Numbered from the stretch's first letter, positions 8,569 to 55,648 are shown. The stretch is 64,000 bases of DNA from an uncultured Verrucomicrobiota bacterium (GCA_937872095.1 CALMNW010000070.1:30542-94541); one strand, 5' to 3'. Notes: generated by a model from the letters alone, not told the origin. Translations and numbers: made by a program.

Positions 8569-8585
8569 CTTCAACTTCCCGATCG

Positions 8586-12946: not shown

Positions 12947-12993
12947 TTCGCGTGATTTAACCGATCGAAAGAAGAATCGCCAACTGGAATCGG

Positions 12994-24343: not shown

Positions 24344-24515
24344 TGAAAACCGTTCGCCTGCGGGCTTGGATCTGACCGTGCGCCGTCCGTACGAAAAACC
24401 CGACATCGAACGCGTGGATCTGGCGTTGGCCGAGACGCTGTCGCAGGGCTGCAAACTGGAGTCCGACAGCGGTTGCGTCGGCCCGCCGATCACGGCGTAC
24501 GAGGGAGGATCTTGA
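24330..24515 (+). CDS. Candidate RiPP precursor peptide (61 aa; alternative ATG at 24324)
   Basis: A GGAGG Shine-Dalgarno at 24317-24321 sits 8 nt before the ATG, inside the 3' end of the rSAM gene. The product MKPNDENRSPAGLDLTVRRPYEKPDIERVDLALAETLSQGCKLESDSGCVGPPITAYEGGS has a leader segment (KPDIERVDLALAETL) that resembles the PqqA leader motif (KPAFIDLRLGLEVTL) bound by PqqD, and its core contains C-x7-C. Confidence 0.5.
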   Translation: MKPNDENRSPAGLDLTVRRPYEKPDIERVDLALAETLSQGCKLESDSGCVGPPITAYEGGS

Positions 24516-25833: not shown

Positions 25834-25872
25834 GACGGTGACGGGTTCCGAGTGGAAAAGGTAGTACAAGCC

Positions 25873-29036: not shown

Positions 29037-29092
29037 GGTCCGGTCCCCAATCCGGCATTCCCTTTCCGGGCAGCCTGTGTTATAAGAACGAT

Positions 29093-30106
29093 ATGGCGTC
29101 GCGTGTTGACAGATTCGGGTGGTTTCTGGGGTTCTTGTTGGCCGGTCTCGCGTTCGGCTGGATGGCGGGTTGCGCCAGCAACGATCCGTTGCCGCTTCCG
29201 CCCGGCGGCATTCTGAGCGAATCGACCGCCGATCGGTCGGCGGCCGCGGAGCGGACGCCGGCGGCTCCCGAAGCCGTTGGCGATCCACAGACCGAGCAGC
29301 CGGCGGAACCAGAAACGGCGCAAACCGCGGCCGCGGCCAAGAAGCTCGCCGCCGCGGAAAAAGCCCAGCGCCGCGAGGCGGAAAAGCAAGCCGCGGCGGA
29401 AGCCAAGCAAGCGGCGGCCGAAAAGAAAGCCGCCGAGAAGCTGGCCAAGAAGGAAGCGAAGCAAGCCGCGGCCGCAGCCGAAAAACTCGCCGCCGCGGAA
29501 AAAAAACGGCAACAGGCCGAAAAAAAGGCGGCGGCCAAGGCTCTGCGCGCGCAACCGAAAGACTGGGCCGCGGAACCGGCGAAACCGGAAAAGGCGTCTG
29601 CCCAATACGTGCTGCAGGCGGGCGACGAAATCGAGATCCAGGTCTATCGCGAACCGGAATTGTCCGGCACGTTCAAGATCAACCCGTCCGGCGATGTCCG
29701 CCATTCGCTCGTGGGGGCGGTTCCCATGGCGGGGCAAACGCTCGAAGAGGCGGAGGCGCAATTCACCCGGAAGCTGGCCAAGGATTATCTGGTCGATCCC
29801 CGCGTCATTTTCAAGCTGTTGTCCACCCAGAGCTCGCAGATCGTCTTGATGGGCGAAGTCAAGAAACCCGGCGTCTATCCGCTGCCCTTCGGCGAAACCA
29901 TGACGCTCCTGCAAGCCATCGCCGGTGCCGGGGGTTTCACCGATTTGGCCAGTCCGGATCGCGTCCGCATCGTGCGGCGGCTGCCGGACGGCCATCAAAC
30001 GACGCTGAAATTCCGCGTGTCGGATCTGCTGGGCGGAAGGGGCAAGCAGCAGGACGTGCCGCTCGAGCCGAACGACGTCATCATGGTGCCGGAAGTGCTG
30101 TTTTAA
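29093..30106 (+). CDS. wza: Polysaccharide export lipoprotein, Wza-like (Poly_export + SLBB), with an Ala/Lys/Glu-rich linker
   Basis: The lipobox reads GWMAGC. The Poly_export motif is YVLQAGDEIEIQVYREPELSGTFKINPSGDV, and the SLBB motif is VLMGEVKKPGVYPL. Confidence 0.85.
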   Translation: MASRVDRFGWFLGFLLAGLAFGWMAGCASNDPLPLPPGGILSESTADRSAAAERTPAAPEAVGDPQTEQPAEPETAQTAAAAKKLAAAEKAQRREAEKQAAAEAKQAAAEKKAAEKLAKKEAKQAAAAAEKLAAAEKKRQQAEKKAAAKALRAQPKDWAAEPAKPEKASAQYVLQAGDEIEIQVYREPELSGTFKINPSGDVRHSLVGAVPMAGQTLEEAEAQFTRKLAKDYLVDPRVIFKLLSTQSSQIVLMGEVKKPGVYPLPFGETMTLLQAIAGAGGFTDLASPDRVRIVRRLPDGHQTTLKFRVSDLLGGRGKQQDVPLEPNDVIMVPEVLF

Positions 30107-30125
30107 GAGGCGATAGGCGGTCGAC

Positions 30126-32273
30126 ATGCAGAAAACTCCATACGTCGCCGGCGCCGAGGAAAGTTCGGAAGGCTCTCTCTCGAAATTTCCCGATTGGCGC
30201 GAGGGCGTGGCCATCCTCATGGAGCGCGCCTGGCTGGGCGTGCTGGTGGCCGTCGCCGTTTTCCTGTTTTTCTTCTTCCAGGCCCGTCGGCAGACGCCCT
30301 ATTACCGCAGTACGGCCACGCTGCTGGTCGAGGCGCAGATTCCCAAAATCCTGAACTACCAGGACATCTTGGCCTACAACACCCGGAATCTGGAATATTT
30401 CAATACGCACATCAACGCCCTCCACAGCCGCAACATGATGAAACAGGCGCTGGAGCGAAGCGGCCTGGAAAAAAACCCGAAATTTTTCTCGGGGAAAACG
30501 CCGGAGGAAAAAGCCGAAGCCGCGCTTGGGCTCGTGACGATCACCGCGGTCGAAAAAACCCGGATGATCAACGTCGTGGTCGAACATCCGGATCCCCAAA
30601 TCGCTTCCGATCTGGCCAACGCGTTGGCCCAGTCCTACATCCAGCAGGATCTCGACAACCGCATGGGCATCTCCATGCAAGCCATCGATTGGCTCCGCGA
30701 CCGGTCCGAGGAATATCGCGACAAGCTGGAGAAGGGACTGCTCGAGCTTCAGGAATACCGGGAGGAAACCGGTTCGGTCTCCCTCGAAGAGGACCAGAAC
30801 ATCGTCATCGAAAAGCTCAAGGCGCTGAACGGCGTGCTGACCATGGCCCAGACCGATCGCATCCAGGCCGAAACGATGTGGAAGTCCGTCCAGGGGCAGC
30901 TCGACGCCGAGGTACCGCTGGCCCAGATCGCGGCGGTGCTGAACGATCCCGGCGTCCAGCCGGCGCTCCAGAAGCTGCAGGACCAGCAGCGCGAAGTCGC
31001 CGGTTTGCAGCAGCGCTATCGTTCGCAGCATCCGGACCTGCAGCAGGCCGTCGAACTGGAGCAAAAACTCCAGAAGCAGTTCGAAGAGGCCTGCCGCGCC
31101 GCCATCTACGCCTTGAAGAGCCGGTATGAAATGCTGGTCGAGCGGGAGCGGAATCTCCAGACCGCGCTGGAAGAGCAGGAAAAAGCGTCCTTCGAGCTGG
31201 ACCGAAAGTTGGTTCGCTACAACGAACTCAAGCGCAACATCGAGGCCGATCAGGAAATCCACCAGGCGGTGATCGCCCGGATGAAGGAAGCCAGCGTTTC
31301 CGAATCGCTGCCGACCGATGTCATCCGCCTCGCCGAAGAAGCCCGGCCCGCCCCAGCGCCGTTTCGTCCGCGTCCGGGACAAGCCATGGTGCGCGGCGTC
31401 GCTTTTGGATTGATCCTCGGTTTCGGCGCGATCTTCCTGTTCTATTACGCCGACCACCGGTTTCGCCGCAACGAGGAGGTCGAACGTCTCCTGGGCCTGC
31501 CCGTTCTCTCCACGGTTCCCCTGATTTTCGACAAGTCCGTCCGGGAGCGCGGCTTGGTCGCGCATCTCAAGCAGAGCGGCGAAGTGGCCGAAGCGTTCCG
31601 CACCCTGCGGGCCAGTCTCCTGCTGCGGGAAGACGTCCGCAACGCCCCCGTCCTGATGATCACCAGCGCCGGGCCGGGAGAAGGCAAGTCGCTCATCTCC
31701 GCCAATCTGGCCGTCAGCCTTGCCCAGGATGGCCGCCGCGTTCTGCTGGTCGGCGCCGACCTGCGTCGCCCCGTGCTGGCCAAGATCTTCGGAGCCGATC
31801 AGGATCGGCCGGGATTGGCCGAAGTGCTCAAGGGAGAATATCGCTGGCAGGAAGCCCTGTATCCGCAGGAGGTGCCGAACCTCGACGTGATGCTGTCGGG
31901 CCGCATCCCTTCGCATCCCGCCGAATTGCTGGGCCGCAAGCCGCTGGCCGATTTCTTGCGGGAGGCGCGCGGCCTCTATCAGCACGTGGTCATCGATGCG
32001 CCTCCCGTTCTCGGCGTCAGCGATTCGCTGGTCCTGTTGCCGCACGTGGACGGCATGCTGTTCGTGGTGCGCTACGGAGTCACGCACAGCATGGGCGCGA
32101 GCCACGCGGTTCTCAAGTTGCGGGAAAGCGGCACGCCTTGCATCGGCAGCATCCTGAACGGCGTGAATCTCAACTCGATGGCCAACTACTATTATTACCG
32201 GCGCTACGGCGGCTATGCCTACCGGCATTACCAGAGCCAGTCCGCCGACGCGTCGCCGGCCAGCGAAGGATGA
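30126..32273 (+). CDS. wzc: Polysaccharide co-polymerase / BY-kinase tyrosine autokinase (Wzc/GumC-like)
   Basis: It has two TM segments flanking a coiled-coil periplasmic domain, a Walker A (SAGPGEGKS) and a C-terminal Tyr-rich tail (YYYYRRYGGYAYRHY). Confidence 0.9.
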   Translation: MQKTPYVAGAEESSEGSLSKFPDWREGVAILMERAWLGVLVAVAVFLFFFFQARRQTPYYRSTATLLVEAQIPKILNYQDILAYNTRNLEYFNTHINALHSRNMMKQALERSGLEKNPKFFSGKTPEEKAEAALGLVTITAVEKTRMINVVVEHPDPQIASDLANALAQSYIQQDLDNRMGISMQAIDWLRDRSEEYRDKLEKGLLELQEYREETGSVSLEEDQNIVIEKLKALNGVLTMAQTDRIQAETMWKSVQGQLDAEVPLAQIAAVLNDPGVQPALQKLQDQQREVAGLQQRYRSQHPDLQQAVELEQKLQKQFEEACRAAIYALKSRYEMLVERERNLQTALEEQEKASFELDRKLVRYNELKRNIEADQEIHQAVIARMKEASVSESLPTDVIRLAEEARPAPAPFRPRPGQAMVRGVAFGLILGFGAIFLFYYADHRFRRNEEVERLLGLPVLSTVPLIFDKSVRERGLVAHLKQSGEVAEAFRTLRASLLLREDVRNAPVLMITSAGPGEGKSLISANLAVSLAQDGRRVLLVGADLRRPVLAKIFGADQDRPGLAEVLKGEYRWQEALYPQEVPNLDVMLSGRIPSHPAELLGRKPLADFLREARGLYQHVVIDAPPVLGVSDSLVLLPHVDGMLFVVRYGVTHSMGASHAVLKLRESGTPCIGSILNGVNLNSMANYYYYRRYGGYAYRHYQSQSADASPASEG

Positions 32274-33583
32274 AAGCCCGCGACTTTCCATTTCCGCTGG
32301 TCATGCTCCTGCTCTTGCTGGCGGCCGCCGCCTGGACGAGTCCGTGGCCGGTCCGCTGGGAAAACGGAGTGGTGCCCGGCCTTGCCGTGTTGGCATTGGC
32401 GGGCAGCCTTATCTCCGGTGGCCTGCCCGCGCGGATCGGGCTGGCGGGAGGACTGCTGCTGGGGTTGATCGCTATGTATGCTTGGAACGCTTCCCATGGT
32501 TGGGCCGACGGGCGCGGCTTGATTCCGCAAGACCATATCCGCGGAGGACCGGCTTCCGCGTATCCCGAGGGCACGTGGGCCGCCGGCCGCCTGTTTCTGG
32601 CTTTGTTCGCCGCTTTCGTCCTGGGGTTTCGCCTGTCCCGCCGGCAGATCCGCGGGCTGCAGGCGCTGGCGGCGGCGGCCGCCGCCGCCATGGCGCTGGC
32701 GGTTCTGATGCAGCGCTTGGAGCCGAATCCCGGTCACGTCTACGAACGTACCGGGATCTTCGTGAACGAGAACCATTTCGCCGTCTTCTCGAATTTGCTT
32801 TTGCCGGTGGTCCTCGTTGCGGCGGCGCGAGCGCGTTTCCGCGCGGTGCAGGAAGGGCGTCTGTCCAGCCCGGCGGGTCTCTTCCTGCTGGTGGCCGCGC
32901 TGATGGCCGCCGCGGTGGTGCTGTGCCGTTCCCGCGCCGGCGTCGCGGTGATGGCGCTGCTGGTGGCGGCGCACGTCTGGTTGTGCCATCGGACGATCCG
33001 GAATTATCCGTTTGCCGGCGTCCCGGCGTCTGCGGGGCTCAAGGCGGCGGGGTGGGCGGCGATCGCGGTGGCGGCGGGATTCGCCGTGCGGGCTTTTTGG
33101 CGCGAATGGCAGCGCATCGAGGTTCTGGGCCAGGAGTGGTCTTTCCGTTCCGGCATCCTGAAGGATGCGCTCGTCGCCTGGCGGGAACATCCCGCGTGGG
33201 GAATCGGTCCCGGAACCTTCTCCGTCGTGTTTCCGTACTACCAGTCTCCGGCGTTCGCGGGAAAAACCATCCTGCATGCGCACTGCGAACCGATCCAGTT
33301 TCTAGTCGAATTCGGCGTGGCGGGAGCGATCGCGGTCGTGGCCGTGCTGGCGCTGGCGCTGTCCGCGCGCAAAACCGCCTCCCTCGCTTCCGCGGAAATT
33401 CCGCCTTTCGCGGATCTCGAGCGCCGCGCATTCGGTTTCGGCCTGCTCGCCTGCGGTCTCCATTGCCTGATCGACTTTCCCCTGCGCATTCCGTTGATCG
33501 CCCTGTTGGCCGCCGCGTGGGCCGGCGTCTGGGTCGGCACCCGGCCGGATGTTTTGGCCGGCGTACCGGCGAGAGGAAGCTGA
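32270..33583 (+). CDS. O-antigen ligase/Wzy-like polymerase (Wzy_C domain membrane protein)
   Basis: It is polytopic, with a periplasmic loop motif (HPAWGIGPGTF). The start overlaps the Wzc stop as ATGA. Confidence 0.75.
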   Translation: MKARDFPFPLVMLLLLLAAAAWTSPWPVRWENGVVPGLAVLALAGSLISGGLPARIGLAGGLLLGLIAMYAWNASHGWADGRGLIPQDHIRGGPASAYPEGTWAAGRLFLALFAAFVLGFRLSRRQIRGLQALAAAAAAAMALAVLMQRLEPNPGHVYERTGIFVNENHFAVFSNLLLPVVLVAAARARFRAVQEGRLSSPAGLFLLVAALMAAAVVLCRSRAGVAVMALLVAAHVWLCHRTIRNYPFAGVPASAGLKAAGWAAIAVAAGFAVRAFWREWQRIEVLGQEWSFRSGILKDALVAWREHPAWGIGPGTFSVVFPYYQSPAFAGKTILHAHCEPIQFLVEFGVAGAIAVVAVLALALSARKTASLASAEIPPFADLERRAFGFGLLACGLHCLIDFPLRIPLIALLAAAWAGVWVGTRPDVLAGVPARGS

Positions 33584-33584
33584 C

Positions 33585-34417
33585 ATGTCCCGCTCCGTGC
33601 GCGAATACGTCCGCCGGCCCCGCACCGGCTGGTTCGATCTGGCCCTGGGCGAGCTGTGGGAATACCGCGACTTGCTGGGCGCGCTGGCGTGGCGGAACCT
33701 GACGGTGCGCTACAAGCAGAGCCTGCTCGGCATCGGTTGGGCCGTGCTCAAGCCCGTGATGCAGATGATCGTGTTCAGCGTCGTGTTCGGGCGTCTGGCC
33801 GATTTGCCGTCGGACGGCATGCCGTATCCGGTTTTTCTCTATGCCGGCCTGCTGCCGTGGACGTATTTCTCCACGACGATCACCAGCGCCTCGGGCAGCC
33901 TGCTCGGCGGCGGCAACATGATCAACAAGGTATATTTTCCCCGCATGATCCTGCCGTTCTCCTATCTGTTCACCGGCCTGCTCGATCTGGCGCTGGCCAT
34001 GGTCGTCCTGTTCGGCATGATGGTTTGGTATCGCGCCGACATGGCGTTCGGGCCGCAGATGCTGCTGTTCCCGATCTTTCTCGTGCCGGCCGTCGCCTGC
34101 GCCGGCGGACTATCGCTGTGGCTGTGCGCTTTGGCCGTTCGCTATCGCGACGTCCACCATCTGGTGCCGTATCTGCTGCAGCTCGGCATGTTCGCGACGC
34201 CCGTGGTTTACGCCGTCCAGCTGCTGCCGGAACGGTTTCGCTGGCTGCTGCAGCTGAATCCCATGACGGGCGTGATCGAAGGCTTCCGTTGGGCGCTGCT
34301 CGGCAAACCGGTCGAAGGATGGGGGTTGCTGGTTGGCGGCTTTGGGGTGGCGCTGCTTTTGCTGTTTTCGGGCATGGTCTATTTCCGGCGCGTGGAAAGG
34401 ACGCTGGCGGACGTGAT

Positions 34418-34421
<4 letters not shown>
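33585..34421 (+). CDS. ABC-2 type polysaccharide/O-antigen exporter permease (Wzm/KpsM-like)
   Basis: It has six TM segments and an ABC-2 signature region, and is paired with the downstream ATPase. The SD reads GAGAGGAAG. Confidence 0.85.
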
Positions 34422-35676
<1,255 letters not shown>

Positions 35677-35680
<4 letters not shown>

Positions 35681-36696
35681 GCGCGCGCCCGGGACTGTTC
35701 GCCGTCGTCACCACGATCCAGGCGCCCACGCCGGCGGTTCGCGAATTGCAGCGCCGGTTGGCGCAGATCGGCGGCCGCCTCGTCGTGGCGGGCGACCAGA
35801 AAGGCCCGGCGGCGTTCGACCTGCCCGATTGCGATTTCCTGAGCTTGGAAGCCCAGCGGACCAGCGGCTTCGCCCTCGCGTCGTCGTTGCCGACGGGCCA
35901 CTACGCGCGCAAGAACGTCGGCTATCTCCAGGCCATCCGCGCGGGCGCCGCGTGCATCTACGAGACCGACGACGACAACGCGCCGCTCGCGACTTGGGCG
36001 CCGCGCGCCGAAACCGTGGCGGACGCCCGGCGGATCGTTGGTGCCGGCTGGACGAACGTCTATCGCCATTTCACGGACGATCCGCAGATCTGGCCGCGCG
36101 GTTTTCCGCTCGAGCGCTTCGCGGATCCCCCCGCGCCGGTCGTGCCGGCGGACGCGACCGTCCGCGCGCCGATCCAGCAGGGCTTGGTCAACGGCTCGCC
36201 CGACGTGGACGCCGTCTGGCGGCTGACGCAGGACCGGCCGTTCGATTTCGAGGTGCGCGCGCCGGTTGCGCTGGGGCCGGGCCAGTGGTGTCCGTTCAAC
36301 ACGCAAAGCACGTGGTGGTGGCCGGCGGCCTATCCGCTGCTCTACGTGCCCAGCCACTGTTCGTTCCGCATGTGCGACATCTGGAAAGGCTTCATTGCCC
36401 AGCGTTGCCTGTGGGCGCTGGGGGCCGGCGTGGTTTTCCATTCGCCGGAAGTGGTCCAGGACCGCAATCCCCACGATTACCGGCGCGATTTCGAGGACGA
36501 AGTGCCGGGCTATCTCCAAAACGCGCGGATCGCGGAAATCCTCGCCGGCCTCGCGTTGGCGCCCGGCGAAGCCGCCGTTGCGGACAACCTGCGCGCCTGC
36601 TATGCGGCCCTGGTGTCCGCGCGGATCTTTCCGCCGGAAGAATTGGCGTTGGTCGCCGCGTGGCGAGCCGATCTGGAACGGATGCCGAAGCCGTGA
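35677..36696 (+). CDS. Putative glycosyltransferase of the DUF288/STELLO-like type (family assignment tentative)
   Basis: The 339-aa cytoplasmic protein overlaps its neighbour as ATGA within the glycosyltransferase run. The family call rests on motif recollection only. Confidence 0.5.
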
Positions 36697-37640
36697 ATGC
36701 GCCCGCGCCGCTGCCGCCGTTGCCCGTCCGTCCTTTGCTGTCCATCGTCGTGCCCAGCTACAACCAAGGGGCTTTCATCCGCCAGACGATCGAATCGTGC
36801 TTGGCGCAGGATTACCGGCCGATCGAGATTGTCGTGGTGGACGGGGCTTCCACGGACGGCACCATCGACGTGCTGCGGTCGTTCGCCGACCGGCCCGAAG
36901 TGCGTTGGGTTTCCGAACCGGACCAGGGCGTCGTGGACGCCGTGAACAAAGGCATGCGCCGGGCCCGCGGCGAAATCTGCGGCATCCAGAGCTCCGACGA
37001 CGTCTATTTGCCCGGGGCGTTCGCGCAGGCCGTGGCGGCGTTCGCGCACCGGCCCGATCTGGCGTTGGTCTATGCCGACGCCGTCAAAATCGATGCCGCG
37101 GGCCGCGAACTGACCCGCTGGCGATCCGGGCCGTTCTCGATCGAAAACTTCCTGTCCAAGCAGACCGTCGTGCTGCAGCCCGCCGCGTTTTTCCGCCGGT
37201 TCGCGTTCGAGGAGGTGGGCGGCTGGTCGTCCGACTATTTCAATGCCGATACGGAATGCTGGCTGCGCATGATCATGCGCCGGCCCGCGCTCAAGATCGA
37301 TGCCTTCTGGGGTTCCCGCCGCATGCATGAAGCGCAACGGGACCGGCAAGGAGAACGGATCGTCGAGAGCTACGTTCGGATGACGCGGGACAATCCCGAC
37401 GTCCGGAACGGTCCGGTCCGCTGGCGGCGGGCGGCGCGCTGCGGCCGGCTTCTCCACGTGGCGCGCTATGCGCCGGCTCTGTCGCCGTGGCGGAAAAAAT
37501 GGTTGTTGCTGCAGGCCGTCGTCGCTTGGCCGCCGGCCTGGCAATCCGTGGATTTGCCCGGGCTATGGGTGCCGGGCTGGTTGGCGCTGCGGCGGCGCTG
37601 GGCGGATCGAAATCGGCGCGGAGGCGCGGAAACCGCATGA
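36693..37640 (+). CDS. Family 2 glycosyltransferase
   Basis: The GT-A N-terminus reads LSIVVPSYNQGAFIRQTIESCLAQDY...IVVVDGASTDGT. It overlaps its neighbour as GTGA. Confidence 0.8.
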   Translation: MNAPAPLPPLPVRPLLSIVVPSYNQGAFIRQTIESCLAQDYRPIEIVVVDGASTDGTIDVLRSFADRPEVRWVSEPDQGVVDAVNKGMRRARGEICGIQSSDDVYLPGAFAQAVAAFAHRPDLALVYADAVKIDAAGRELTRWRSGPFSIENFLSKQTVVLQPAAFFRRFAFEEVGGWSSDYFNADTECWLRMIMRRPALKIDAFWGSRRMHEAQRDRQGERIVESYVRMTRDNPDVRNGPVRWRRAARCGRLLHVARYAPALSPWRKKWLLLQAVVAWPPAWQSVDLPGLWVPGWLALRRRWADRNRRGGAETA

Positions 37641-41071: not shown

Positions 41072-41072
41072 C

Positions 41073-46406: not shown

Positions 46407-47485
46407 AGAAGCGGCTGGTTTGGATTCGCACCGCGCCGCCGGACCTTCCCGGCAGCATGGCCGCCTTTGGCGACCTGGTGCGGCAAGCCGTCGAGCCGTT
46501 GGCGGACGACTGGGAACGGTCGACGTGCGACCTGTTCGATCCGCGCGGCGGCGCCTCCATGTGGCGGCACCATCTGTGGCGTCTGCGGCATGCCCGCCGC
46601 GTGCTCGCGGCGCAGCCCGCCGATCTTTGCCATTGGCTGGACGGTTCGATGGCGGCCTTCATCCCCCATGCGCTGCGCGCCCGCAGCGTCGTCACGGTCC
46701 ACGATCTGATTCCGTTGCTGCAACTGCGCGGGGAATTGCCGGGGCGTCCCAGCGCGCCGGCCGCGTGGCTGATCCGGCGCGGCATCCGGGCCTTGCGCGG
46801 TTGCGCCGGCCTGTGCGCGGATTCCGCGGCCACGCGGGCCGATCTCGCGCGGCTGGCGGGCATCGCGGAACGCGTGGCCGTGGTTCCCGTGCCGGTGCGG
46901 CTCCTGCCGCCGCCGCAGCCGGTCGCGGTGGCCGGCCTGCCGCCCGGCGCGCGCTACGTCCTGCATGTCGGCAACAATGCGGGCTACAAAAACCGTTTGG
47001 GCGTTTTGGCCGTATTTTCCCGTCTGCGCGATCTGGCGGATTTGCATCTGGTGTTGGCCGGCCCGCCGCCGACCCGCGCGTTGCGCGCCGCGGCCGCACG
47101 CCTGAAACGCGTGCATTTCGCCGGGCCCGTGGACGACGCCCAGCTGAACGGCCTTTATCGCGGCGCGGCCGTTTTCCTGTTCCCGAGCCTCTATGAAGGC
47201 TACGGCATGCCCGTGCTGGAGGCCATGGCGGCGGAGTGCCCGGTCGTGTGTTCCACCGCGCCGGCGTTGGTCGAAGTGGCGGGTGCGGCCGCGCTCTGCG
47301 CGCCGGCGTCCGATCCCGAAGCGCTGGCCGCGCAATGCCGGATGGCGTTGTCCGACGCCGATCTGCGGGGCAAGCTGGTCGCGGCGGGCCGCGCCCGCGC
47401 CGGCGGTTTTGACGTTGCTTCGTTGGGCCGATCCTTGCTGAAATGCTACGAACAGGCGTTGGAGCGAAAGGAACCCCATGGCTGA
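46403..47485 (+). CDS. GT4-family glycosyltransferase
   Basis: It has an FPSLYEGYGMPVLEAMAAECPVV motif. It overlaps its neighbour as ATGA. Confidence 0.8.
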   Translation: MKKRLVWIRTAPPDLPGSMAAFGDLVRQAVEPLADDWERSTCDLFDPRGGASMWRHHLWRLRHARRVLAAQPADLCHWLDGSMAAFIPHALRARSVVTVHDLIPLLQLRGELPGRPSAPAAWLIRRGIRALRGCAGLCADSAATRADLARLAGIAERVAVVPVPVRLLPPPQPVAVAGLPPGARYVLHVGNNAGYKNRLGVLAVFSRLRDLADLHLVLAGPPPTRALRAAAARLKRVHFAGPVDDAQLNGLYRGAAVFLFPSLYEGYGMPVLEAMAAECPVVCSTAPALVEVAGAAALCAPASDPEALAAQCRMALSDADLRGKLVAAGRARAGGFDVASLGRSLLKCYEQALERKEPHG

Positions 47486-48059
47486 TACGGCATCATCTCG
47501 AATCCGGGTGGACCGGGCCGCCTGTCCGAGTCCCCATTCGGCCGCCAACAAGCTGGCTCGTTTGCTGTGGCAGGCCGCGTGGCTCCTGCTGTTCCGGCCT
47601 TCGCCGTGGTTCTGGCACGCGCCGCGCCGCGCGCTGCTGCGCCTGTTCGGAGCGAAGCTGGGGAAAAACGTCCAGATCATGCCGTCGGTTCGGATCTGGG
47701 CGCCTTGGCACCTGTCGCTGGGGGACTTTGCGACCGTCGGCGCCGGCGTGGATCTCTACGACGTGGACCGCATCGAGATCGGCGCCCACGCCACGATCAG
47801 CCAGCGCGCCTTCCTGTGCACCGCCACGCACGACGTGGATCATCCGAACATGCCGTTGCAAACCGCGCCGATCCGGATCGGCGCCGGCGCGTGGGTTTGC
47901 GCGGAGGCCTACGTGCATCCCGGAGTGGAAATCGGGACCGATGCCGTCGCCGGCGTGCGCGCCGTGGTGCTGCGCGACGTGCCGCCGGGGCAGATCGTGG
48001 GCGGCAACCCCGCGAAATTCCTGCGGACGCGCCATTTGGAGAATGCGGGGCCGGAGTGA
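47478..48059 (+). CDS. Hexapeptide-repeat (left-handed beta-helix) acetyltransferase, WcaF-like
   Basis: The product contains IGAHATISQRAFLCTATHDVDH...IGAGAWVCAEAYVHPGVEIGTDAVAGVRAVV. Confidence 0.85.
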   Translation: MADTASSRIRVDRAACPSPHSAANKLARLLWQAAWLLLFRPSPWFWHAPRRALLRLFGAKLGKNVQIMPSVRIWAPWHLSLGDFATVGAGVDLYDVDRIEIGAHATISQRAFLCTATHDVDHPNMPLQTAPIRIGAGAWVCAEAYVHPGVEIGTDAVAGVRAVVLRDVPPGQIVGGNPAKFLRTRHLENAGPE

Positions 48060-48886
48060 CCGTGCCGCTTTCCATTTCGGCGGTCGTGTTGTCCCACAAC
48101 GAAGCGGCCAACCTGCCGCGTTGCCTGCGCGCGCTGCGAGACTGCGCCGAAGTCGTCGTGGTGGACGACGGCAGCACCGACGATAGTCCGCGGGTCGCCG
48201 CCGAGTGCGGCGCGCGCGTCGTGGTCCATCCCTTCGCCTCGTTCGCCGACCAGCGCAATTGGGCGATGGACGCAGCCGGTCTGCGCTGCGACTGGGTTCT
48301 GCATCTGGACGCGGACGAAGTCGCGCCGCCGGAATTGCTGGCCGAAATCCGGCGCCGCCTGCCGGCGCTGGAGGCCGGCGCCGTCGGCCAGCTTGCGCGC
48401 AAGGTGATGCTCGGGGAAAAATGGCTGAAGCACAGCGCGGATTATCCCGTCTTCGTGCCCCGTCTCGTCCATCGCCGCGGCCCGCGCTACGTCATGCGCG
48501 GCCACGGCGAAACGCTGGCGGCCGCGTCCGGAGCCGCCGTCTATTTCGACGCGCCGCTGCGGCACTACAATTTCTCCAAAGGCTGGGCCGAATGGCGCGT
48601 GCGGCACTTGCGCTATGCCGCCGCCGAAGCCGCGCGCATCCGTTCCGGCGGGGCGGCTCTTTCCTTGCGCGCGCTGGTCGCGCCGGACCGCTCCGTCCGC
48701 CGCGCCGCGTTGCGGGCGCTGTCCTACCGGCTGCCCGGTCGGCCGGCGCTTCGGTTTCTCTACGCCTATCTGCTGCGGCTGGGCTTTTTGGACGGCCGGG
48801 CCGGCTGGACCTTTTGCCGCGCCATGGCCTCCTACGAACGCATGATCGACGCCGAACTGCGCAAGCCGCAGGCGGAAGCGAAATGA
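48056..48886 (+). CDS. Family 2 glycosyltransferase
   Basis: The product reads ISAVVLSHNEAANLPRCLRAL...VVVDDGSTDDS...HLDADE. The GTG start overlaps its neighbour as GTGA. Confidence 0.8.
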   Translation: MTVPLSISAVVLSHNEAANLPRCLRALRDCAEVVVVDDGSTDDSPRVAAECGARVVVHPFASFADQRNWAMDAAGLRCDWVLHLDADEVAPPELLAEIRRRLPALEAGAVGQLARKVMLGEKWLKHSADYPVFVPRLVHRRGPRYVMRGHGETLAAASGAAVYFDAPLRHYNFSKGWAEWRVRHLRYAAAEAARIRSGGAALSLRALVAPDRSVRRAALRALSYRLPGRPALRFLYAYLLRLGFLDGRAGWTFCRAMASYERMIDAELRKPQAEAK

Positions 48887-50076
48887 ACGTCGTGCTGGTC
48901 AACCAGTTCTTTCCGCCGGCGGAGGCGCCGACGGGGATCCTGCTGGGCGACGTGGCCGCGGAACTGGCGCGCCGGGGACACCGCGTGACGGTCGTCGCTT
49001 CGGCCGCGGCCTACGGAGCGGGCGCGGAGGCGCCGGTGCCCGCCGGCGTGCAAGCGGTCCGGGTGGGGCCGGAGACCCGGCATCGCGATGGCCCCGCCGC
49101 GAAGTTCGCCGATTATCTGTCGTTCGTGCGCGGAGCCTGGAAGGAGCTGTCGCGCCGGGAGCGTCCAGATGCGGTGCTGTGCCTGACCACGCCGCCGTTC
49201 ATCGGTCTTCTGGGCGCGCATCTGCGAAAACGCAGAGGCGTGCCGTTCGTGCTGTGGTGCATGGATCTCTACCCCGAGGCGTTGTCGGCGCACGGTTGGC
49301 TGCGGCCGTGGAATCCGCTGAAGCCGCTGCTGGCCGCTCTGGCGCGGGAAGAACGCCGCCGGGCTTCCGCCGTCATCGCCCTCGGACCGGACATGGCGGA
49401 ACGGCTGGCCGCCTCGGGCGCGCGGCGCGTGGAAACGGTTCCCGTCTGGAGCGGTCTCGCGGTTTCGCCGTCTCGGGAAACCGAAGCGCGCGCCCTGCGC
49501 CGCGCGCGCGGCTGGGCCGACGACGACGTCGTCCTGCTTTACAGCGGCAACATGGGGCGCGCCCACCGGGCGGACGACTTCGCCGCCCTGGCCGAAAGCC
49601 TGCGCGGCCGCTCGCCGCGCTGCCGGTTCGTTTTTTCCGGCGGCGGCCCGCTGCGGTCGGAATGGGAGCGGAAATGGAGCGGGCTTTTCGAATTCATGCC
49701 GGCGGTGGCCGGCGATGCATGCGTCGCCCATTTGCTCGCCGCCGACGTCCATCTGGTTTCCCAGCAGCCGGCCTGGACGGGCGTCGTGGTGCCGAGCAAG
49801 TTCCCGGCCGCCTGCGCCTTGGGGAAGCCCGTCGTTTTCGCCGGTCCGCCGCAGAGCGCCGTCGGCCGATGGCTGGCGGAAGCGGATGCGGGTTGGCTCT
49901 TGGCGCCCGGCGCCGCCGCGGCTTCCGAGCAAGTCGCCCGCGAAGTTCTCCGGGCGGATGTGCGCGCCGCCAAGGGCGCGCAAGCGGCCCGCCTTTTCCG
50001 GCAACGGTTCGCGCCGGCGGAAAATTGTGGTAAGATCGCCAACTTGATCGAACACGTCGCGGAAGAACGGCCATGA
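48883..50076 (+). CDS. GT4-family glycosyltransferase (WcaI-like)
   Basis: It is GT-B type. It overlaps its neighbour as ATGA. Confidence 0.8.
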   Translation: MNVVLVNQFFPPAEAPTGILLGDVAAELARRGHRVTVVASAAAYGAGAEAPVPAGVQAVRVGPETRHRDGPAAKFADYLSFVRGAWKELSRRERPDAVLCLTTPPFIGLLGAHLRKRRGVPFVLWCMDLYPEALSAHGWLRPWNPLKPLLAALAREERRRASAVIALGPDMAERLAASGARRVETVPVWSGLAVSPSRETEARALRRARGWADDDVVLLYSGNMGRAHRADDFAALAESLRGRSPRCRFVFSGGGPLRSEWERKWSGLFEFMPAVAGDACVAHLLAADVHLVSQQPAWTGVVVPSKFPAACALGKPVVFAGPPQSAVGRWLAEADAGWLLAPGAAAASEQVAREVLRADVRAAKGAQAARLFRQRFAPAENCGKIANLIEHVAEERP

Positions 50077-51968: not shown

Positions 51969-53103
51969 GCTGCTGGTCAACGCGCTGTCGGTCGCCAATC
52001 CGAGCGGATTGCACGTGTTGCTGGGGCATCTGGATCAGGTGGCGGACGCGTTGCGGGATCGCGTTCGCCTCGTGGTGCTGTGCCGCGCGGACGCGGCCGG
52101 CCTGCGCGCGGGGCTGGGGGAGCGCGCCGATTGGGAGTTCGCGCCCGCGTTCACGCGCGGCTGGTTCCGGCGCGCGTGCTGGGAGCGCGCGCATCTCGCG
52201 CGGCTCGCGCGGCGGCACGAAGCCTGCGCGGTTTTCACGCCCAGCGGCATCGCCGCGCACGGCCTCGACGTTCCCCAGATCGTGTTTTGCCAGAATCCGT
52301 GGGCGCTGGTGCCGGCCGCCCGCCGCCGCCGCGACGCGTTCAAGGCGGGATTGCAGCGCCGGGCCTATCGCCGCGCCATGCGCGCGGCCGACGTCCTGGT
52401 CTTCAATTCCCGCTACATGCAGGCGGCCTATCGCGCCAACGCCGGCTGCGAAGAAAAACGCGGGCTCGTGGTTTACCAGGCCGCGGACGACGCCACCCGC
52501 GCCCGGGCGGCCGCGGCGGCGGACGTCCCGCGCCAGGCCGGCCAGATCCTCTGCGTTTCCGTGATGGCGCCGCACAAGAACGCCGAAGCGCTCGTGCGCG
52601 CCTTGCGCGTCGTCCGGGACGGGAATCCGGCGGCGCGCCTCGTTTTCGCCGGTTCGTGGCCCGACGCCGCCTACGAACGGAAGATCCGCGCGCTCGTCGG
52701 CTCGCTGGGCCTGGGCGGGGCCGTCGAATTCCTCGGATTCGTTACGCGCGAACGGCTGGACCGCCTGTACGCCGAGTCGCGCGTCTTTTGCCTGATGAGC
52801 CGGTGCGAATCCTTCGGCATTCCCGCCGTCGAGGCGCAGGGGTTCGGGACGCCCGTCGTCGGTTCCACGGTCTGCGCCGTTCCCGAAATCGGCGGCGCCG
52901 GCGGCTTGTTCCGCGATCCGGACGACGTTTCCGGCATCGCCGCCGCCCTGCGGACGTTGCTGGAAGACGACGCGGAATGGCGGCGGCTTTCGGCTGCCGC
53001 GCGGGCGAACGCCGCGCGGTTTACCTGGGCCGAATGTTCCCGGCCCTTGGTCGATCTCGTCGCCGAACTGGCGGGATCCGGAACCGGCGGCATCCGCGCA
53101 TGA
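51961..53103 (+). CDS. GT4-family glycosyltransferase
   Basis: It has an MSRCESFGIPAVEAQGFGTPVV motif. Confidence 0.8.
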   Translation: MRRLLVNALSVANPSGLHVLLGHLDQVADALRDRVRLVVLCRADAAGLRAGLGERADWEFAPAFTRGWFRRACWERAHLARLARRHEACAVFTPSGIAAHGLDVPQIVFCQNPWALVPAARRRRDAFKAGLQRRAYRRAMRAADVLVFNSRYMQAAYRANAGCEEKRGLVVYQAADDATRARAAAAADVPRQAGQILCVSVMAPHKNAEALVRALRVVRDGNPAARLVFAGSWPDAAYERKIRALVGSLGLGGAVEFLGFVTRERLDRLYAESRVFCLMSRCESFGIPAVEAQGFGTPVVGSTVCAVPEIGGAGGLFRDPDDVSGIAAALRTLLEDDAEWRRLSAAARANAARFTWAECSRPLVDLVAELAGSGTGGIRA

Positions 53104-54071
53104 ACGTCGCGCCGGCGAGCCTGAAGATGAAATTGGCGTTGTCGGCCGGCGCGTTTCTCGTAGCGGGCGGGCTGCTGGAATTGGCCTGCCAGGCGACGTA
53201 CGCCTTCGGCGTAGCGCCCCAATTGGCCGCGCAGCGGAACGATCCCGCGCATTACTACGAGGCGTCCGACGATTCCGTGTTGGCGTATCGCCTCAAGGCC
53301 GATTGCCGGATCGAGAAGGACGGCCGCGTCGTTTGCATCAATCGCCATGGTTTGCGCGACGATCGCGACGACTTGGCCGCGCCGGCCAGCGTGGCGTTGC
53401 TGGGCGACTCCGTGCCGTTCGGCATCGCGCTGTCGCAGGACGAAACGCCGGCGGCCGCCCTGCAGCGGCTGGCCGGCGCCGAAACGCGCGTCCTGAATTT
53501 CGGCGTCCCCGGCTACGGAGTCCAGGAATTGCGGCGCGAATTGGAGCGGATCTTTTCCCTGTGCCGCCCCAGCCGCATCTATTACGTTCTCAACCCCAAC
53601 GATTTTTCCGTGCGCGGCACCTTCACGGAGGGCGGCGACAACGGGTTGTATCGCATGTACGTCCCGCCGGCGCTGAAGACGCCTTTTTTCGTGCGCAAGG
53701 CGATCTACCGTTTTATGAAGGGGGGAAGGATGTCGTCCGTGCGGTGGTACCGCTGGCTGTACGAAAGCAACAAGACGCAATTGCTGCCGGTCATTGCGGA
53801 GATGGCGGAATTCGCCCGTGCCCGGGGCAGCGAACTGGTCGTGGTGCCGTTTCCGCCGGCCGTGGCCTATGCGGCGGACGGCCGGTTCGCCCTGCAGGAC
53901 GTTTTCGACGAAATCGGCGATTATCTGCGGGCCAACCGCATCCCCGCGCTGGCGCCCGTCGCCGAATTCGGCCAAAACGTCTACGCGCTGCAGGACGACA
54001 CCGACCACTTGACCGCCGCCGGCAGCGAAGTCCTGGCACGCGCGATCTGGCGGGATTTCACAAAGGAATGA
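53100..54071 (+). CDS. SGNH/GDSL-like hydrolase (candidate polysaccharide O-acetyl esterase/acyltransferase)
   Basis: It has an N-terminal TM helix and block I (LLGDSVPFG). It overlaps its neighbour as ATGA. Confidence 0.6.
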   Translation: MNVAPASLKMKLALSAGAFLVAGGLLELACQATYAFGVAPQLAAQRNDPAHYYEASDDSVLAYRLKADCRIEKDGRVVCINRHGLRDDRDDLAAPASVALLGDSVPFGIALSQDETPAAALQRLAGAETRVLNFGVPGYGVQELRRELERIFSLCRPSRIYYVLNPNDFSVRGTFTEGGDNGLYRMYVPPALKTPFFVRKAIYRFMKGGRMSSVRWYRWLYESNKTQLLPVIAEMAEFARARGSELVVVPFPPAVAYAADGRFALQDVFDEIGDYLRANRIPALAPVAEFGQNVYALQDDTDHLTAAGSEVLARAIWRDFTKE

Positions 54072-55648
54072 ACGGGAACGCAGCGATGGCGGAACGCGAA
54101 CAGACCGGCCGGGCATGGACCTGGGGCATGATCGTCCTGGCGGGAGGGGTACCGTTCGCGGCGGACATGTTGCGCAATTTCCAGCTGTTCGCCCCCGCGC
54201 AGCTGGCCTGGTCGTTCGCGGCGGTACTGGCCGGCACGACCGGCGCGTTCAGCCTGTGCGCGCTGGCTCTCGCGGCGCTTGGGCGGCGTTGGCCGGCGAT
54301 CCGCGCGCGCTGGGCCGCGCGGACGTTCGCGGGCGTCGCCGCGCTGGTTTTCGCCGCGTTCCTGTACGACGCGAACCTGACGGAATTGCGGATCGGCTAC
54401 GGTTTGCCCCGGCTGGCGGCGGTCGCCGCCGTGGCGGCGCTTTTCGTTCTCTACTGGGCCGTGGCGGCGCGGCTGGGCGCCAAACGAACCAGCCTGCTGC
54501 TGCTGATCCTGCTGGCCGTCCGCGCCGATCAGGCCGCTCGGACCGTCGCATCCACGGCGACCCGCGGCAACGAGCTGATTTCGGCGGCGGAAATGGGAAT
54601 CTACGATCAAGTGAAACTGGCGCGCACGCCGAACATCTACTTCATCTGCCTGGAGTCCTACCACGGTTTCGGCGCGATGCGGGAGCTGTACGGATTCGAC
54701 AACGCGGAGTTCCGGGAATTTCTCGGCGAAAACGGATTCGTCGTCGCGGAAGACGTGCTGTCGAACTATTCGTTCACCATGACCAGCCTGCACTCCATCC
54801 TGCTGATGGGACACCACTACGCGGCGGGCGCGTTCGGCAACCACGATTCCCTCTATGCCCGCGGCTTCATTTCGGGCAGCGGGACCTACTACAATCCGAC
54901 GCTTCGCATTCTGAAGCGGAACGGCTACGACGTCGTTTACCTGCTGCCTTCGGACTACTACTACCGGCCCGGCGCGGGCTTGGTGGATTACTCCTTGCTG
55001 AACCGGTCCTGGCCGTTCGCGCCGCTGAAGGTCAGCCTGCCGCGGTTCATCGGCCGCGAGCCGGACACCTTGGTGCCGGATTACCCGCGCCAGGTGGCGG
55101 AAACCCTCGCGCGCTGGCCGCTGGACCGCCCGGCGTTCTTTTTCGCCAAGCTGGGGGCGGAGCATGCGGCGGACGGCTACGACTATCGGACCGACCGGGA
55201 GGCGTTCGCCGCGCGCTACGTCGAAACCGTCGCGCGGGAAAACGCCGCGATCGAGGTGCTGGTGCGGCAGATCGCCGCGCGCGATCCGCAGGGCATCGTC
55301 GTGCTGGCCGGCGACCACGGCGCCCAAAGCTACAAGTGCCGCGCGCGCGGTTTCGCGGCGACGAAGCAAGCCGGCGAAGTGCCCGTTGGCCGGCTCGTGC
55401 GGGATTGCCACGACGTCTTGCTGGCCATCCGCTGGGGCGCCGGCCAGGAAGCGGCGCCGTATCCCTACCGGAGCCTGGTCAACCTCATGCGGTTCGTGTT
55501 CGCGCAACTGGGCGGGGGCGGGGCCTTGGAGCAAACGGCGGCCGCCGATTCCTCCTATCTGCTGGACGACGTCGGCCTGCTGCGCGTGGCCGAGGACGGG
55601 CAACCGTTGGCGGATTGGACCCTCGTGCCGCGGAAGGGGTGGCGGTAG
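54068..55648 (+). CDS. Membrane-anchored alkaline-phosphatase/sulfatase-superfamily protein (LTA-synthase/phosphoethanolamine- or phosphoglycerol-transferase-like)
   Basis: About 5 N-terminal TM helices precede a domain with the motifs NIYFICLESYHGF and VVLAGDHG. Confidence 0.65.
   Translation: MNGNAAMAEREQTGRAWTWGMIVLAGGVPFAADMLRNFQLFAPAQLAWSFAAVLAGTTGAFSLCALALAALGRRWPAIRARWAARTFAGVAALVFAAFLYDANLTELRIGYGLPRLAAVAAVAALFVLYWAVAARLGAKRTSLLLLILLAVRADQAARTVASTATRGNELISAAEMGIYDQVKLARTPNIYFICLESYHGFGAMRELYGFDNAEFREFLGENGFVVAEDVLSNYSFTMTSLHSILLMGHHYAAGAFGNHDSLYARGFISGSGTYYNPTLRILKRNGYDVVYLLPSDYYYRPGAGLVDYSLLNRSWPFAPLKVSLPRFIGREPDTLVPDYPRQVAETLARWPLDRPAFFFAKLGAEHAADGYDYRTDREAFAARYVETVARENAAIEVLVRQIAARDPQGIVVLAGDHGAQSYKCRARGFAATKQAGEVPVGRLVRDCHDVLLAIRWGAGQEAAPYPYRSLVNLMRFVFAQLGGGGALEQTAAADSSYLLDDVGLLRVAEDGQPLADWTLVPRKGWR

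Follow-up and report, generated by a model that had tools for sequence, protein, structure and literature searches.

How can one bacterial operon carry parts of two polysaccharide export routes that textbook models keep separate? In those models the Wzx/Wzy-dependent route and the ATP-binding cassette (ABC) transporter-dependent route are distinct, and polysaccharide co-polymerases (PCPs) with a bacterial tyrosine kinase (BY-kinase) domain are tied to Wzy-dependent polymerisation. The question is raised by a 64,000-nucleotide (nt) stretch of DNA, hereafter the window, from an uncultured Verrucomicrobiota bacterium (GCA_937872095.1 CALMNW010000070.1:30542-94541), in which a gene cluster of about 26 kb (29093-55648) encodes Wza- and Wzc-like proteins, two Wzy-like proteins and a Wzm/Wzt ABC exporter. 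The original prediction, made from the sequence alone, had read this inventory as an unusual assembly route or as two polymers made from one operon. Our analysis identifies the cluster as the section for glycan synthesis and export within a larger operon, conserved across Kiritimatiellia, for a cell-envelope polysaccharide. For its hybrid content, the explanation that we tentatively prefer, with slightly less than even confidence, is a mixed route in which one undecaprenyl diphosphate (Und-PP)-linked glycan is exported by the ABC transporter and then handed over to Wzc, an outer-membrane polysaccharide export (OPX) protein and a β-barrel.

Gene content and junctions of the operon

Because the GC content of the window is about 67%, raw lists of open reading frames (ORFs) were full of spurious frames; genes were called by a codon-usage model trained on long ORFs, and every junction was inspected. 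This yielded 23 plus-strand genes between 29093 and 55648 (g1-g23, Table 1), one more than the 22 counted originally. The junction pattern described for them was borne out exactly: 15 of the 22 junctions are 4-nt overlaps (12 ATGA, 3 GTGA), two are 7-nt overlaps (ATGCTGA at 39510 and 45042), two are 8-nt overlaps (47478 and 51961), two are 1-nt gaps (33585 and 41073), and the single larger gap is the 19 nt between wza and wzc (30107-30125), all 22 thus lying within -8 to +19 nt. Such packing is consistent with the tight translational coupling that had been proposed. About 30% of operon junctions overlap by 4 nt, and at this assumed background rate 15 or more such overlaps in 22 junctions have a probability of roughly 2e-4. 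Shine-Dalgarno-like cores were present 5-17 nt upstream of 11 of the 23 starts versus 8.7% of random positions (P ~1e-6), and the start of g3 at 32270 is supported by a public protein (P0001) to which its translation is 100% identical over 437 amino acids (aa). Scans for promoter-like and terminator-like sites inside 29093-55648 returned counts at chance level, with no excess.

Every gene from 13060 to 55648 lies on one strand. The coordinates first given for the operon were correct for the glycan genes, but its 5' end was placed too far downstream, since coupled upstream genes had been overlooked: the coupling continues through a FecR-like gene into a cassette resembling those for RiPPs (ribosomally synthesised peptides that are modified after translation), and the unit that is both coupled and conserved begins at 23001 or further upstream. 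At the other end, the stops of g23 and of a convergent NTP_transf_5 gene are 6 nt apart, a spacing too short to hold an intrinsic terminator. Base composition changes along the cluster, from a GC content of about 62-65% over wza-wzc (28001-32000) to 68-71% over the glycosyltransferase region (38001-50000), and the AT skew shifts too; the step fits a mosaic origin of the glycan-specific part.

Searches with Pfam and NCBIfam models confirmed the families assigned to Wza, Wzc, Wzm, Wzt with its C-terminal extension and two S-adenosylmethionine (SAM)-dependent methyltransferases. The hybrid inventory therefore stands, with a BY-kinase Wzc, an OPX protein and two Wzy/WaaL-fold proteins encoded alongside a Wzm/Wzt exporter that has a C-domain of the carbohydrate-binding type.

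Outer-membrane and periplasmic export proteins

The g1 product had been called Wza. Its Poly_export and SLBB domains were confirmed, but it is a short class-3 OPX lipoprotein with a barrel partner and not of the Wza type. From its N-terminus it comprises a lipobox, an Ala-, Lys- and Glu-rich linker about 130 aa long, then Poly_export and one SLBB domain, after which it ends, at residue 337, without the C-terminal helix of Wza (D4, Wza_C); the model of E. coli Wza (PRK15078) was matched over positions 82-250 of 380 only, and the best NCBIfam models were pepcterm_export, EpsY and EpsE. The tether between lipobox and Poly_export (29093-29600, about 130 aa) is probably helical, and its length varies, as the OPX proteins of relatives span 210-479 aa. 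With respect to a PEP-CTERM/exosortase system, no window gene scanned matched an exosortase in Pfam or NCBIfam, no dedicated model or motif search having been run, and no PEP-CTERM-like ending was obvious by eye, likewise without a motif search, in the C-terminal tails of the neighbouring proteins inspected.

The barrel gene lies 56 nt upstream of the OPX gene and adjoins it in all relatives with coverage. Its product has a signal peptide and a C-terminal aromatic residue and is presumed to be the outer-membrane pore partner of the short OPX. Wzc (g2), a PCP of the PCP-2a type, gave AAA_31, GNVR and Wzz matches and has two transmembrane segments, a Walker A motif (GPGEGKS) and a Tyr-rich tail, YYYYRRYGGYAYRHY.

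Conservation and co-variation among related loci

We fetched about 30 related loci, 25 of them from species-representative genomes, all metagenome-assembled genomes (MAGs), and compared them with the window proteins by tblastn. Most of the 25 MAG loci were labelled Kiritimatiellia, Verrucomicrobiota or Tichowtungia, and a few Lentisphaerae, Victivallales or Mollicutes. The order barrel-OPX-Wzc-g3-Wzm-Wzt was kept in about 20 of the roughly 30 loci, with g3 identity falling as low as 34% across the fetched set, and in about 20 the upstream order was kept as well (a giant protein, PqqD, radical SAM, ScmC, FecR-like, then the barrel). Since the hybrid order is retained in some 20 Kiritimatiellia loci, the juxtaposition cannot be put down to chance. 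Behind Wzt the related loci are mosaic; conservation resumes with a 3' block, g11-g21, which includes g15 and the initiating transferase and is followed by the convergent NTP_transf_5 gene. Both flanks, the export genes and the g11-g21 block, are thus conserved, and the variable centre travels with the Wzm/Wzt allele.

Sequence identities divided the genes of the conserved order into two sets. Identity in g3 correlated with that in Wzc (r 0.91) and in the barrel (r 0.94), and Wzm tracked Wzt (r 0.96). In one locus (L007) Wzc and g3 were 87% and 78% identical to the window proteins but Wzm only 37%, while in another (L025) Wzm and Wzt were 93% and 95% identical but Wzc and g3 only 76% and 62%. 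These splits place a recombination breakpoint between g3 and wzm, with g3 on the export side. Start/stop coupling across this breakpoint was kept in most loci.

In a further locus, on a metagenomic contig (L001, 5995-8223), g3 and Wzm are encoded as a single 742-aa ORF (P0117). This fusion may be real or an assembly error, and as a singleton we give it little weight; its use as a strong sign of a physical link between the two proteins was down-weighted after no second case appeared among the best 150 matches.

Polytopic proteins and the search for a flippase

We searched the two polytopic proteins, g3 and g15, for the flippase families PF01943 and PF13440 and found neither, in agreement with the statement that no Wzx is recognisable. 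The wider set of MOP/Wzx models (PF01943, PF13440, PF14667 and PF03023) had no match in any gene of the 64-kb window. No flippase was found in the Pfam-annotated related loci, in which the unannotated genes had no transmembrane segments.

The g3 protein belongs to the Wzy_C family. Its profile found no match by sequence in the PDB, and its AlphaFold2 model had a predicted local distance difference test (pLDDT) score of 89. The 127 homologues of g3 are all of Kiritimatiellia type, annotated from Kiritimatiellia MAGs. The g15 protein (454 aa) matched no Pfam or NCBIfam family even at E<=10, and its profile likewise had no match by sequence in the PDB; its family comprises at least 280 proteins, of which the best 120 listed are all at least 50% identical. 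A model of g15 built from 55 homologues (pLDDT 89, predicted template-modelling score 0.90) had as its top Foldseek match the O-antigen ligase WaaL (7tpg; E 1.4e-5, template-modelling scores 0.53/0.58), followed by FtsW and RodA, and a MATE transporter appeared only at E 1.7. The fold of g15 is therefore that of WaaL/Wzy/SEDS proteins and not that of a flippase. We accordingly rejected g3 and g15 as hidden Wzx proteins, given the Wzy_C membership of the one, the WaaL/SEDS fold of the other and the lack of any MOP match even at E<=10.

The earlier description of both as Wzy-like polymerases holds as far as family (g3) and fold (g15) are concerned, but it overlooked that Wzy_C is also the O-antigen ligase family. 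Homology between g3 and g15 was not significant in a profile-profile comparison (E 0.13), though their motifs line up. Both are candidates for Wzy by family or fold, and both are kept while glycosyltransferase content varies, a pattern that seems more ligase-like; for g3 in particular it would suit a ligase of relaxed donor specificity better than a structure-specific Wzy.

The Wzm/Wzt exporter and possible recognition of the glycan terminus

The permease and ATPase genes, g4 and g5, overlap by 4 nt. For the permease, galactan Wzm and KpsM models were matched below their cut-offs (KpsM with 45 bits against a cut-off of 300). The C-terminal extension of the ATPase, which had been proposed to be of the glycan-terminus-binding type, matched Wzt_C with 52.4 bits against a cut-off of 30.4 (PF14524, residues 276-389), and the best PDB match of the protein was the full-length Aquifex aeolicus Wzt (8dku/7k2t), with an alignment extending into the binding domain; TarH and TagH were also matched. 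When the C-domain was searched in isolation, the carbohydrate-binding domain (CBD) entries of Wzt, 8dky and 6o14, were the only matches, at weak E values (0.26-0.31). The Pfam match above cut-off, together with the match to A. aeolicus Wzt, excludes the alternative that the extension is unrelated to Wzt_C.

Between Wzt allele classes the ATPase domains are 50-59% identical and the C-domains cannot be aligned, whereas C-domains within the same class are 67-95% identical. This is the pattern that a glycan-specific recognition domain would show. The STELLO-like glycosyltransferase gene g6 directly follows Wzt in 9 of the 10 loci that share the C-domain class of the window, and g6 is thus a candidate terminal-residue transferase that appears to be inherited with this Wzm/Wzt allele.

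The two small methyltransferases had been suggested to supply a chain-terminating methyl cap read by Wzt, as in E. coli O8/O9a. This idea gained no support from the co-variation test, because the methyltransferases do not track the C-domain class. Two loci (L008 and L010) have Wzt C-domains 86% and 78% identical to that of the window, yet both methyltransferases are absent at the syntenic sites, and a Pfam scan of the unmatched ORFs of these loci found no methyltransferase. The Methyltransf_24 gene (g10) was found in some relatives only, irrespective of C-domain class, and occurs with an unrelated class in L007 and L020. The Methyltransf_23 gene (g13) is absent at its syntenic site in L008 and L014 and is fused to a family 2 glycosyltransferase (GT2) in L032 and L033. 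No WbdD-like kinase or coiled-coil architecture was found alongside the two small methyltransferases. A methyl cap from g10 or g13 is thus unsupported, and g6 is more likely to set the recognised terminus than either methyltransferase.

A possible route for the glycan

The mixed route that we tentatively prefer would begin with g20, a single WecA-type transferase, priming undecaprenyl phosphate. About 13 cytoplasmic glycosyltransferase domains, an acetyltransferase and, here, two methyltransferases would complete the chain on the cytoplasmic face of the inner membrane. The finished chain would cross that membrane through Wzm/Wzt, with the Wzt C-domain recognising a terminal feature specific for the glycan type; this feature is more probably the work of the co-inherited g6 than a methyl group. 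With translocation left to Wzm/Wzt, a Wzx would not be needed. Once in the periplasm, the chain would be transferred to an acceptor or joined by an enzyme of the WaaL/Wzy fold, which may be g3 on the export side, g15 in the 3' block, or both, and Wzc, the short lipoprotein OPX and the EpsL-like barrel would carry it across the periplasm and outer membrane. The genes, their families and folds, their order, coupling, conservation and co-variation were observed; the path of the substrate, the acceptors of g3 and g15 and the task of g6 are proposals. In favour of such a route, the locus contains one initiating transferase (g20) and one inner-membrane translocase (Wzm/Wzt). Further support comes from the dense one-strand packing, the lack of a MOP/Wzx protein in the window and in the annotated related loci, the Wzy_C membership of g3 and WaaL/SEDS-like fold of g15, the recurring order from barrel to Wzt, the cassette-like layout with class-specific Wzt C-domains, the few short-OPX/barrel couples already placed in ABC-dependent contexts (PMC9601211) and, at low weight, the g3-Wzm fusion.

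Several observations weigh against it. We found no precedent in which a BY-kinase of the PCP-2a type co-operates with a Wzm/Wzt exporter, and in the canonical ABC-dependent O-antigen pathway the product is ligated to lipid A-core with neither OPX nor PCP. The identity of g3 does not track that of Wzm (r 0.61 overall, -0.38 in the close clade), a search of 1.84 billion representative proteins gave no second fusion of the two in its best 150 matches, and Foldseek returned no significant PDB match for the g3 model. Three loci of one lineage (L002, L003 and L026) keep barrel-OPX-Wzc-g3 and carry unrelated genes after g3, with no Wzm/Wzt nearby, which implies that the export module can serve glycan genes located elsewhere. 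Finally, our coverage was of the window, and elsewhere in the genome there could be genes for a Wzx, for a Wzb or for a WaaL of its own.

Some of these observations speak for two products made from one operon, an alternative that we consider less likely than the mixed route but a strong competitor. Wzm/Wzt and the glycosyltransferases would make an O-antigen-like chain that g15 or g3 ligates to lipid A-core for export by Lpt, and barrel-OPX-Wzc, together with the other Wzy-like protein, would polymerise and secrete a second product, a Wzy-dependent capsule or exopolysaccharide (EPS), with the flippase and perhaps further genes encoded at other sites. Two WaaL/Wzy-like proteins are indeed present; Wzy_C is the O-antigen ligase family, and no structure matched g15 better than WaaL itself. 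The persistence of OPX-Wzc-g3 without Wzm/Wzt in the L002 lineage and the co-variation of g3 with Wzc and of Wzm with Wzt, as separate units, fit this scheme, and it leaves every part in its canonical role and assumes no new partnership. It is opposed by the single initiating transferase, by the lack of a Wzx in the window and in the annotated related loci, and by the position of wzm directly after g3 in about 20 loci, at a distance of 1 nt in the window. In addition, g3 is conserved amid changing glycosyltransferases, which would be unusual for a structure-specific Wzy.

The breakpoint between g3 and wzm raises another alternative, that the hybrid order arose by historical accident at a recombination hot spot, with interchangeable glycan cassettes inserted behind a generic barrel-OPX-Wzc-g3 platform and no physical hand-over. 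The identities in L007 and L025 fit this view, as do the rise in GC content between wza-wzc (about 62%) and the glycosyltransferase region (68-71%) and the unrelated genes that follow g3 in L002-type loci. However, functionally integrated O-antigen and capsule loci also exchange cassettes at a fixed site, so that such exchange is no argument against co-operation. The retention of start/stop coupling across the breakpoint in most loci and the conservation of the 3' flank (g11-g21 and NTP_transf_5) also speak against an accident, which we regard as improbable.

Glycosyltransferases, initiating transferase and 3' end

The locus encodes five GT2 proteins, one fusion of a family 4 glycosyltransferase (GT4) with a GT2, and five GT4 proteins. 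The presence of g7, g8 and g9 varies among relatives, and g16-g19 occur in the same order in L033 with 65-76% identity. In the window the GT4+GT2 fusion, g12, is followed by a separate Methyltransf_23 protein (g13), while in L032 (7060-8811) and L033 (7042-8793) the GT2 half of g12 is fused to the methyltransferase domain in a 583-aa protein, and L033 also has a separate GT4. Domain shuffling of this kind suggests that the GT4, GT2 and methyltransferase activities act together.

A WecA-like initiator was confirmed in g20 (PF00953), the sole initiating transferase in the locus. It also matched TIGR02380 with 113 bits, below the cut-off, and MraY was among its PDB matches. Residues 384-605 match positions 2-206 of TIGR03025; this extra C-terminal region of about 250 aa resembles the non-catalytic N-terminal part of WbaP/WcaJ, and the 630-aa architecture is kept in L033. 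The two last genes of the operon, g22 and g23, are both absent from L033, and the NTP_transf_5 gene is found at the same position in L033 and L002.

Upstream cassette and neighbouring genes

The upstream cassette comprises a PqqD-like RiPP recognition element (RRE) protein, a radical SAM maturase, a 61-aa precursor-like peptide and a putative kinase related to HprK and ScmC. It is coupled by overlaps of -14 (radical SAM stop and peptide), -4, -4 and -4 nt through the FecR-like gene to the barrel. The PqqD-like gene is conserved in position in about 20 related loci, as a neighbour with a putative functional link to the glycan genes. The radical SAM protein, which is syntenic in relatives, gave near full-length matches to MftC-type and PqqE-type models, below their cut-offs. 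The peptide, with 67 homologue clusters, matched no family; it is conserved in about 20 loci, with the consensus RRPYEKPxIxRVDLALAETLSxGCKLxxDxxCVGPPxxxxEGGS, two Cys residues and an invariant C-terminal Gly-Ser. It lacks a signal sequence, and there is no gene for a peptide exporter. The TTG start of the kinase gene at 24512 was inferred from its 4-nt overlap and from L002, for whose homologue PF27840 (ScmC) is recorded. A literature search on SynChlorMet found nothing.

The FecR-domain protein is conserved in relatives with 47-82% identity. Its N-terminal region followed by a hydrophobic segment resembles an anti-sigma factor, with no sigma-factor gene nearby, and its long C-terminal part looks by eye possibly like a TIM-barrel glycoside hydrolase.

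A precursor ending in Ser, an HPr-kinase-like gene, a PqqD-like RRE and an NTP_transf_5 gene thus lie in one conserved neighbourhood; neither a lasso cyclase nor a protease is present. Some lasso peptides have a C-terminal Ser that is phosphorylated by an HPr-kinase-like enzyme; adding hexoses to this phosphate requires an uncharacterised nucleotidyltransferase (PMC6993621). The cassette with its flanking NTP_transf_5 gene recalls this tailoring set (PadeK/PsmK kinase and PsmN), although membership of PsmN in PF14907 is presumed only.

These genes could be taken to mean that the 61-aa peptide carries the glycan or serves as its primer, giving a secreted peptide-anchored polysaccharide or glyco-RiPP. 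The glycan operon would then form the downstream portion of a supra-operon that extends over at least 33 kb and is conserved in Kiritimatiellia, in which the HprK-like protein phosphorylates the Ser and acts with NTP_transf_5, g3 is an oligosaccharyltransferase for the ABC-exported glycan, and Wzc, OPX and barrel form the secretion route. The Wzy_C family also includes protein O-oligosaccharyltransferases. The PqqD-radical SAM-peptide-kinase cassette is overlap-coupled to the FecR-like and barrel genes and kept in about 20 loci, the peptide always ends in Gly-Ser, an NTP_transf_5 gene lies beside the locus in the window as in relatives, and Ser phosphorylation and hexosylation of lasso peptides offer an analogy (PMC6993621). 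We nevertheless hold a peptide anchor to be very improbable, as the WecA-type initiator and Wzm/Wzt point to an undecaprenyl-linked glycan, the peptide lacks both a signal sequence and an encoded exporter, the link consists of gene adjacency within one bacterial class, and one locus (L004) keeps the glycan genes without an adjoining cassette. The conserved coupling of a RiPP-like cassette to a polysaccharide machine is itself new and merits a separate look.

Upstream of the cassette, a 3298-aa protein (13060-22956, plus strand) contains nine SdrD_B repeats, GEVED and, near the C-terminus, a gingipain-type Peptidase_C25 domain; its tail has no obvious PEP-CTERM-like ending by eye, and homologues occupy the same place in relatives (3496 aa in L003). 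The 590-nt divergent intergenic region before it (12469-13059) holds the sole promoter-like sites found. Three large sensor proteins with many PAS domains are encoded on the minus strand (824-11588). The outer two are histidine kinases (HATPase_c), one of them with a periplasmic solute-binding domain, and the middle one, with PocR and GAF, had no kinase-domain match. An ORF that runs off the window end (62541-63998) combines a domain of ribose-5-phosphate isomerase B (LacAB_rpiB, residues 3-142) with serine hydroxymethyltransferase (156-484).

Table 1. Features of the polysaccharide operon and its coupled or adjoining genes, in window coordinates.
Feature	Position	Strand	Evidence
PqqD-like peptide chaperone (RRE)	23001-23255	+	NCBIfam lasso_PqqD/PQQ_PqqD
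Radical SAM/SPASM maturase	23324-24343	+	Pfam Radical_SAM 77 bits
61-aa RiPP-like precursor peptide	24330-24515	+	found by translation; identical to public called protein P0384
HprK-related/ScmC-like putative kinase	24512-25414	+	Hpr_kinase_C weak; TIGR04352, ScmC; below cut-offs
FecR-domain protein	25411-27756	+	Pfam FecR weak; 4-nt overlaps both sides
Outer-membrane β-barrel, BBP2_2/EpsL-like	27753-29036	+	PF10082 32.7 bits (above cut-off); TIGR03014 EpsL E 5e-10
g1, short class-3 OPX lipoprotein	29093-30106	+	Poly_export PF02563 67 bits, one SLBB
g2, Wzc, PCP-2a co-polymerase with BY-kinase domain	30126-32273	+	TIGR01007 140 bits, cut-off 108
g3, polytopic Wzy_C-family protein	32270-33583	+	PF04932 52 bits
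g4, Wzm, ABC-2 permease	33585-34421	+	PF01061 72 bits
g5, Wzt ATPase with C-terminal Wzt_C	34418-35680	+	PF00005 81 bits; PF14524 52.4 bits
g6, STELLO-like glycosyltransferase	35677-36696	+	PF03385 41.5 bits
g7, g8, g9, three GT2	36693-37640, 37637-38497, 38494-39516	+	PF00535 86-97 bits
g10, small SAM methyltransferase, Methyltransf_24, accessory	39510-40094	+	PF13578 61 bits
g11, GT2	40091-41071	+	Pfam
g12, GT4+GT2 fusion	41073-43199	+	Pfam
g13, SAM methyltransferase, Methyltransf_23	43196-43870	+	PF13489 89 bits
g14, GT4	43867-45048	+	PF00534 99 bits
g15, conserved polytopic protein, WaaL/Wzy/SEDS-like fold	45042-46406	+	no Pfam family; AlphaFold2/Foldseek
g16 GT4, g18 GT2, g19 GT4	within 46403-50076	+	Pfam/NCBIfam
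g17, WcaF-like acetyltransferase	47478-48059	+	Pfam/NCBIfam
g20, WecA/MraY-family polyprenyl-phosphate HexNAc-1-P transferase, 631 aa	50073-51968	+	PF00953 123 bits
g21, GT4	from 51961	+	Pfam
g22, membrane-anchored SGNH/GDSL-like protein	53100-54071	+	weak, below cut-offs
g23, membrane-anchored sulfatase/alkaline-phosphatase-superfamily-like protein	54068-55648	+	weak, 24.7 bits, below cut-off
NTP_transf_5 nucleotidyltransferase, convergent	55655-56605	-	PF14907 87 bits

Comparison with known systems

Systems of ABC-dependent O-antigen export with a CBD-containing Wzt include those of E. coli O8/O9a, K. pneumoniae O12 and Raoultella terrigena, with Wzm-Wzt structures from A. aeolicus (6m96, 7k2t, 8dku). 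The window locus resembles these in its Wzm, its Wzt with Wzt_C, WecA-type priming, a large number of cytoplasmic glycosyltransferases, a C-domain whose divergence follows glycan type and a WaaL-fold protein in the locus. It differs in that its coupled operon also encodes a PCP with a BY-kinase domain, an OPX and a barrel for the outer membrane, in having two WaaL/Wzy-fold proteins and in lacking a WbdD-like kinase/methyltransferase with a coiled coil.

Composite translocons of a short OPX and a barrel include EpsY/EpsX, WzaB/WzpB and ExoA/ExoB of M. xanthus and VpsN/VpsM of V. cholerae (PMC9601211, PMC9603273, PMC12819527). The outer-membrane part of the window locus agrees with this class in its Poly_export and single SLBB domain, the missing C-terminal helix and the adjoining barrel gene followed by a PCP, with EpsY, pepcterm_export and EpsL as the best NCBIfam models. 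It departs from it in the long Ala/Lys/Glu-rich OPX tether and the full BY-kinase PCP, and in contrast to the class-3 translocons of Wzx/Wzy pathways its inner-membrane step is Wzm/Wzt and not Wzx. Schwabe et al. assigned 14 of 453 short-OPX/barrel couples to ABC-dependent contexts (PMC9601211).

Group 2/3 capsule systems (KpsMT-KpsE-KpsD) share with the window locus an ABC exporter coupled to a PCP and an OPX, and a polymer completed in the cytoplasm. Here, however, the PCP is a PCP-2a with a kinase domain and not a PCP-3, the OPX is of class 3 with a barrel, without a GfcC-type region and not of KpsD type, the exporter resembles Wzm/Wzt and has a binding domain at its C-terminus, and priming is of the WecA type. 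Among the 23 genes we found no KpsS/KpsC-type gene and no Capsule_synth-type match.

In a survey of cyanobacteria, EPS production was suggested not to follow one pathway strictly, and cyanobacterial EPS gene sets resemble the window locus in combining parts of both canonical pathways (PMC4594306). Unlike those scattered genes, the genes described here stand in one operon with start/stop coupling, and their fixed order is kept across a class. One precedent for a glycan with two fates is the group 4 capsule of E. coli, in which the same undecaprenyl-linked units pass to lipopolysaccharide via WaaL and to capsule via Wza/Wzc homologues. Such a branching would explain a ligase-like protein beside OPX and PCP; the group 4 system is Wzx/Wzy-dependent, in contrast to the ABC exporter at the inner membrane here. 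The cell-wall polysaccharide cluster of the Gram-positive Lactococcus lactis, which has a flippase, mixes ABC-type and Wzy-type parts in a dual-chain assembly.

Every part of the window locus belongs to a known family, and the locus is a lineage-wide variant of known pathways and not a new kind of system. What is new is the fixed, coupled and class-wide combination of a BY-kinase PCP-2a, a class-3 OPX with barrel, two WaaL/Wzy-fold proteins and a CBD-containing Wzt, with no flippase.

Implications

Kiritimatiellia are known both to make and to break down complex, partly sulfated polysaccharides. Our literature search on their EPS export genes found nothing, and a paper on a Pontiella exopolymer names none of the genes described here. 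If the glycan does follow one route, machines built of PCP-2a and OPX can accept polymers from an O-antigen-type ABC exporter, and enzymes of the WaaL/Wzy fold may sit at the hand-over. The exchange of the central region among relatives, which involves the Wzm/Wzt allele, g6 and the variable glycosyltransferases, is a natural experiment on what the C-domains of Wzt read.

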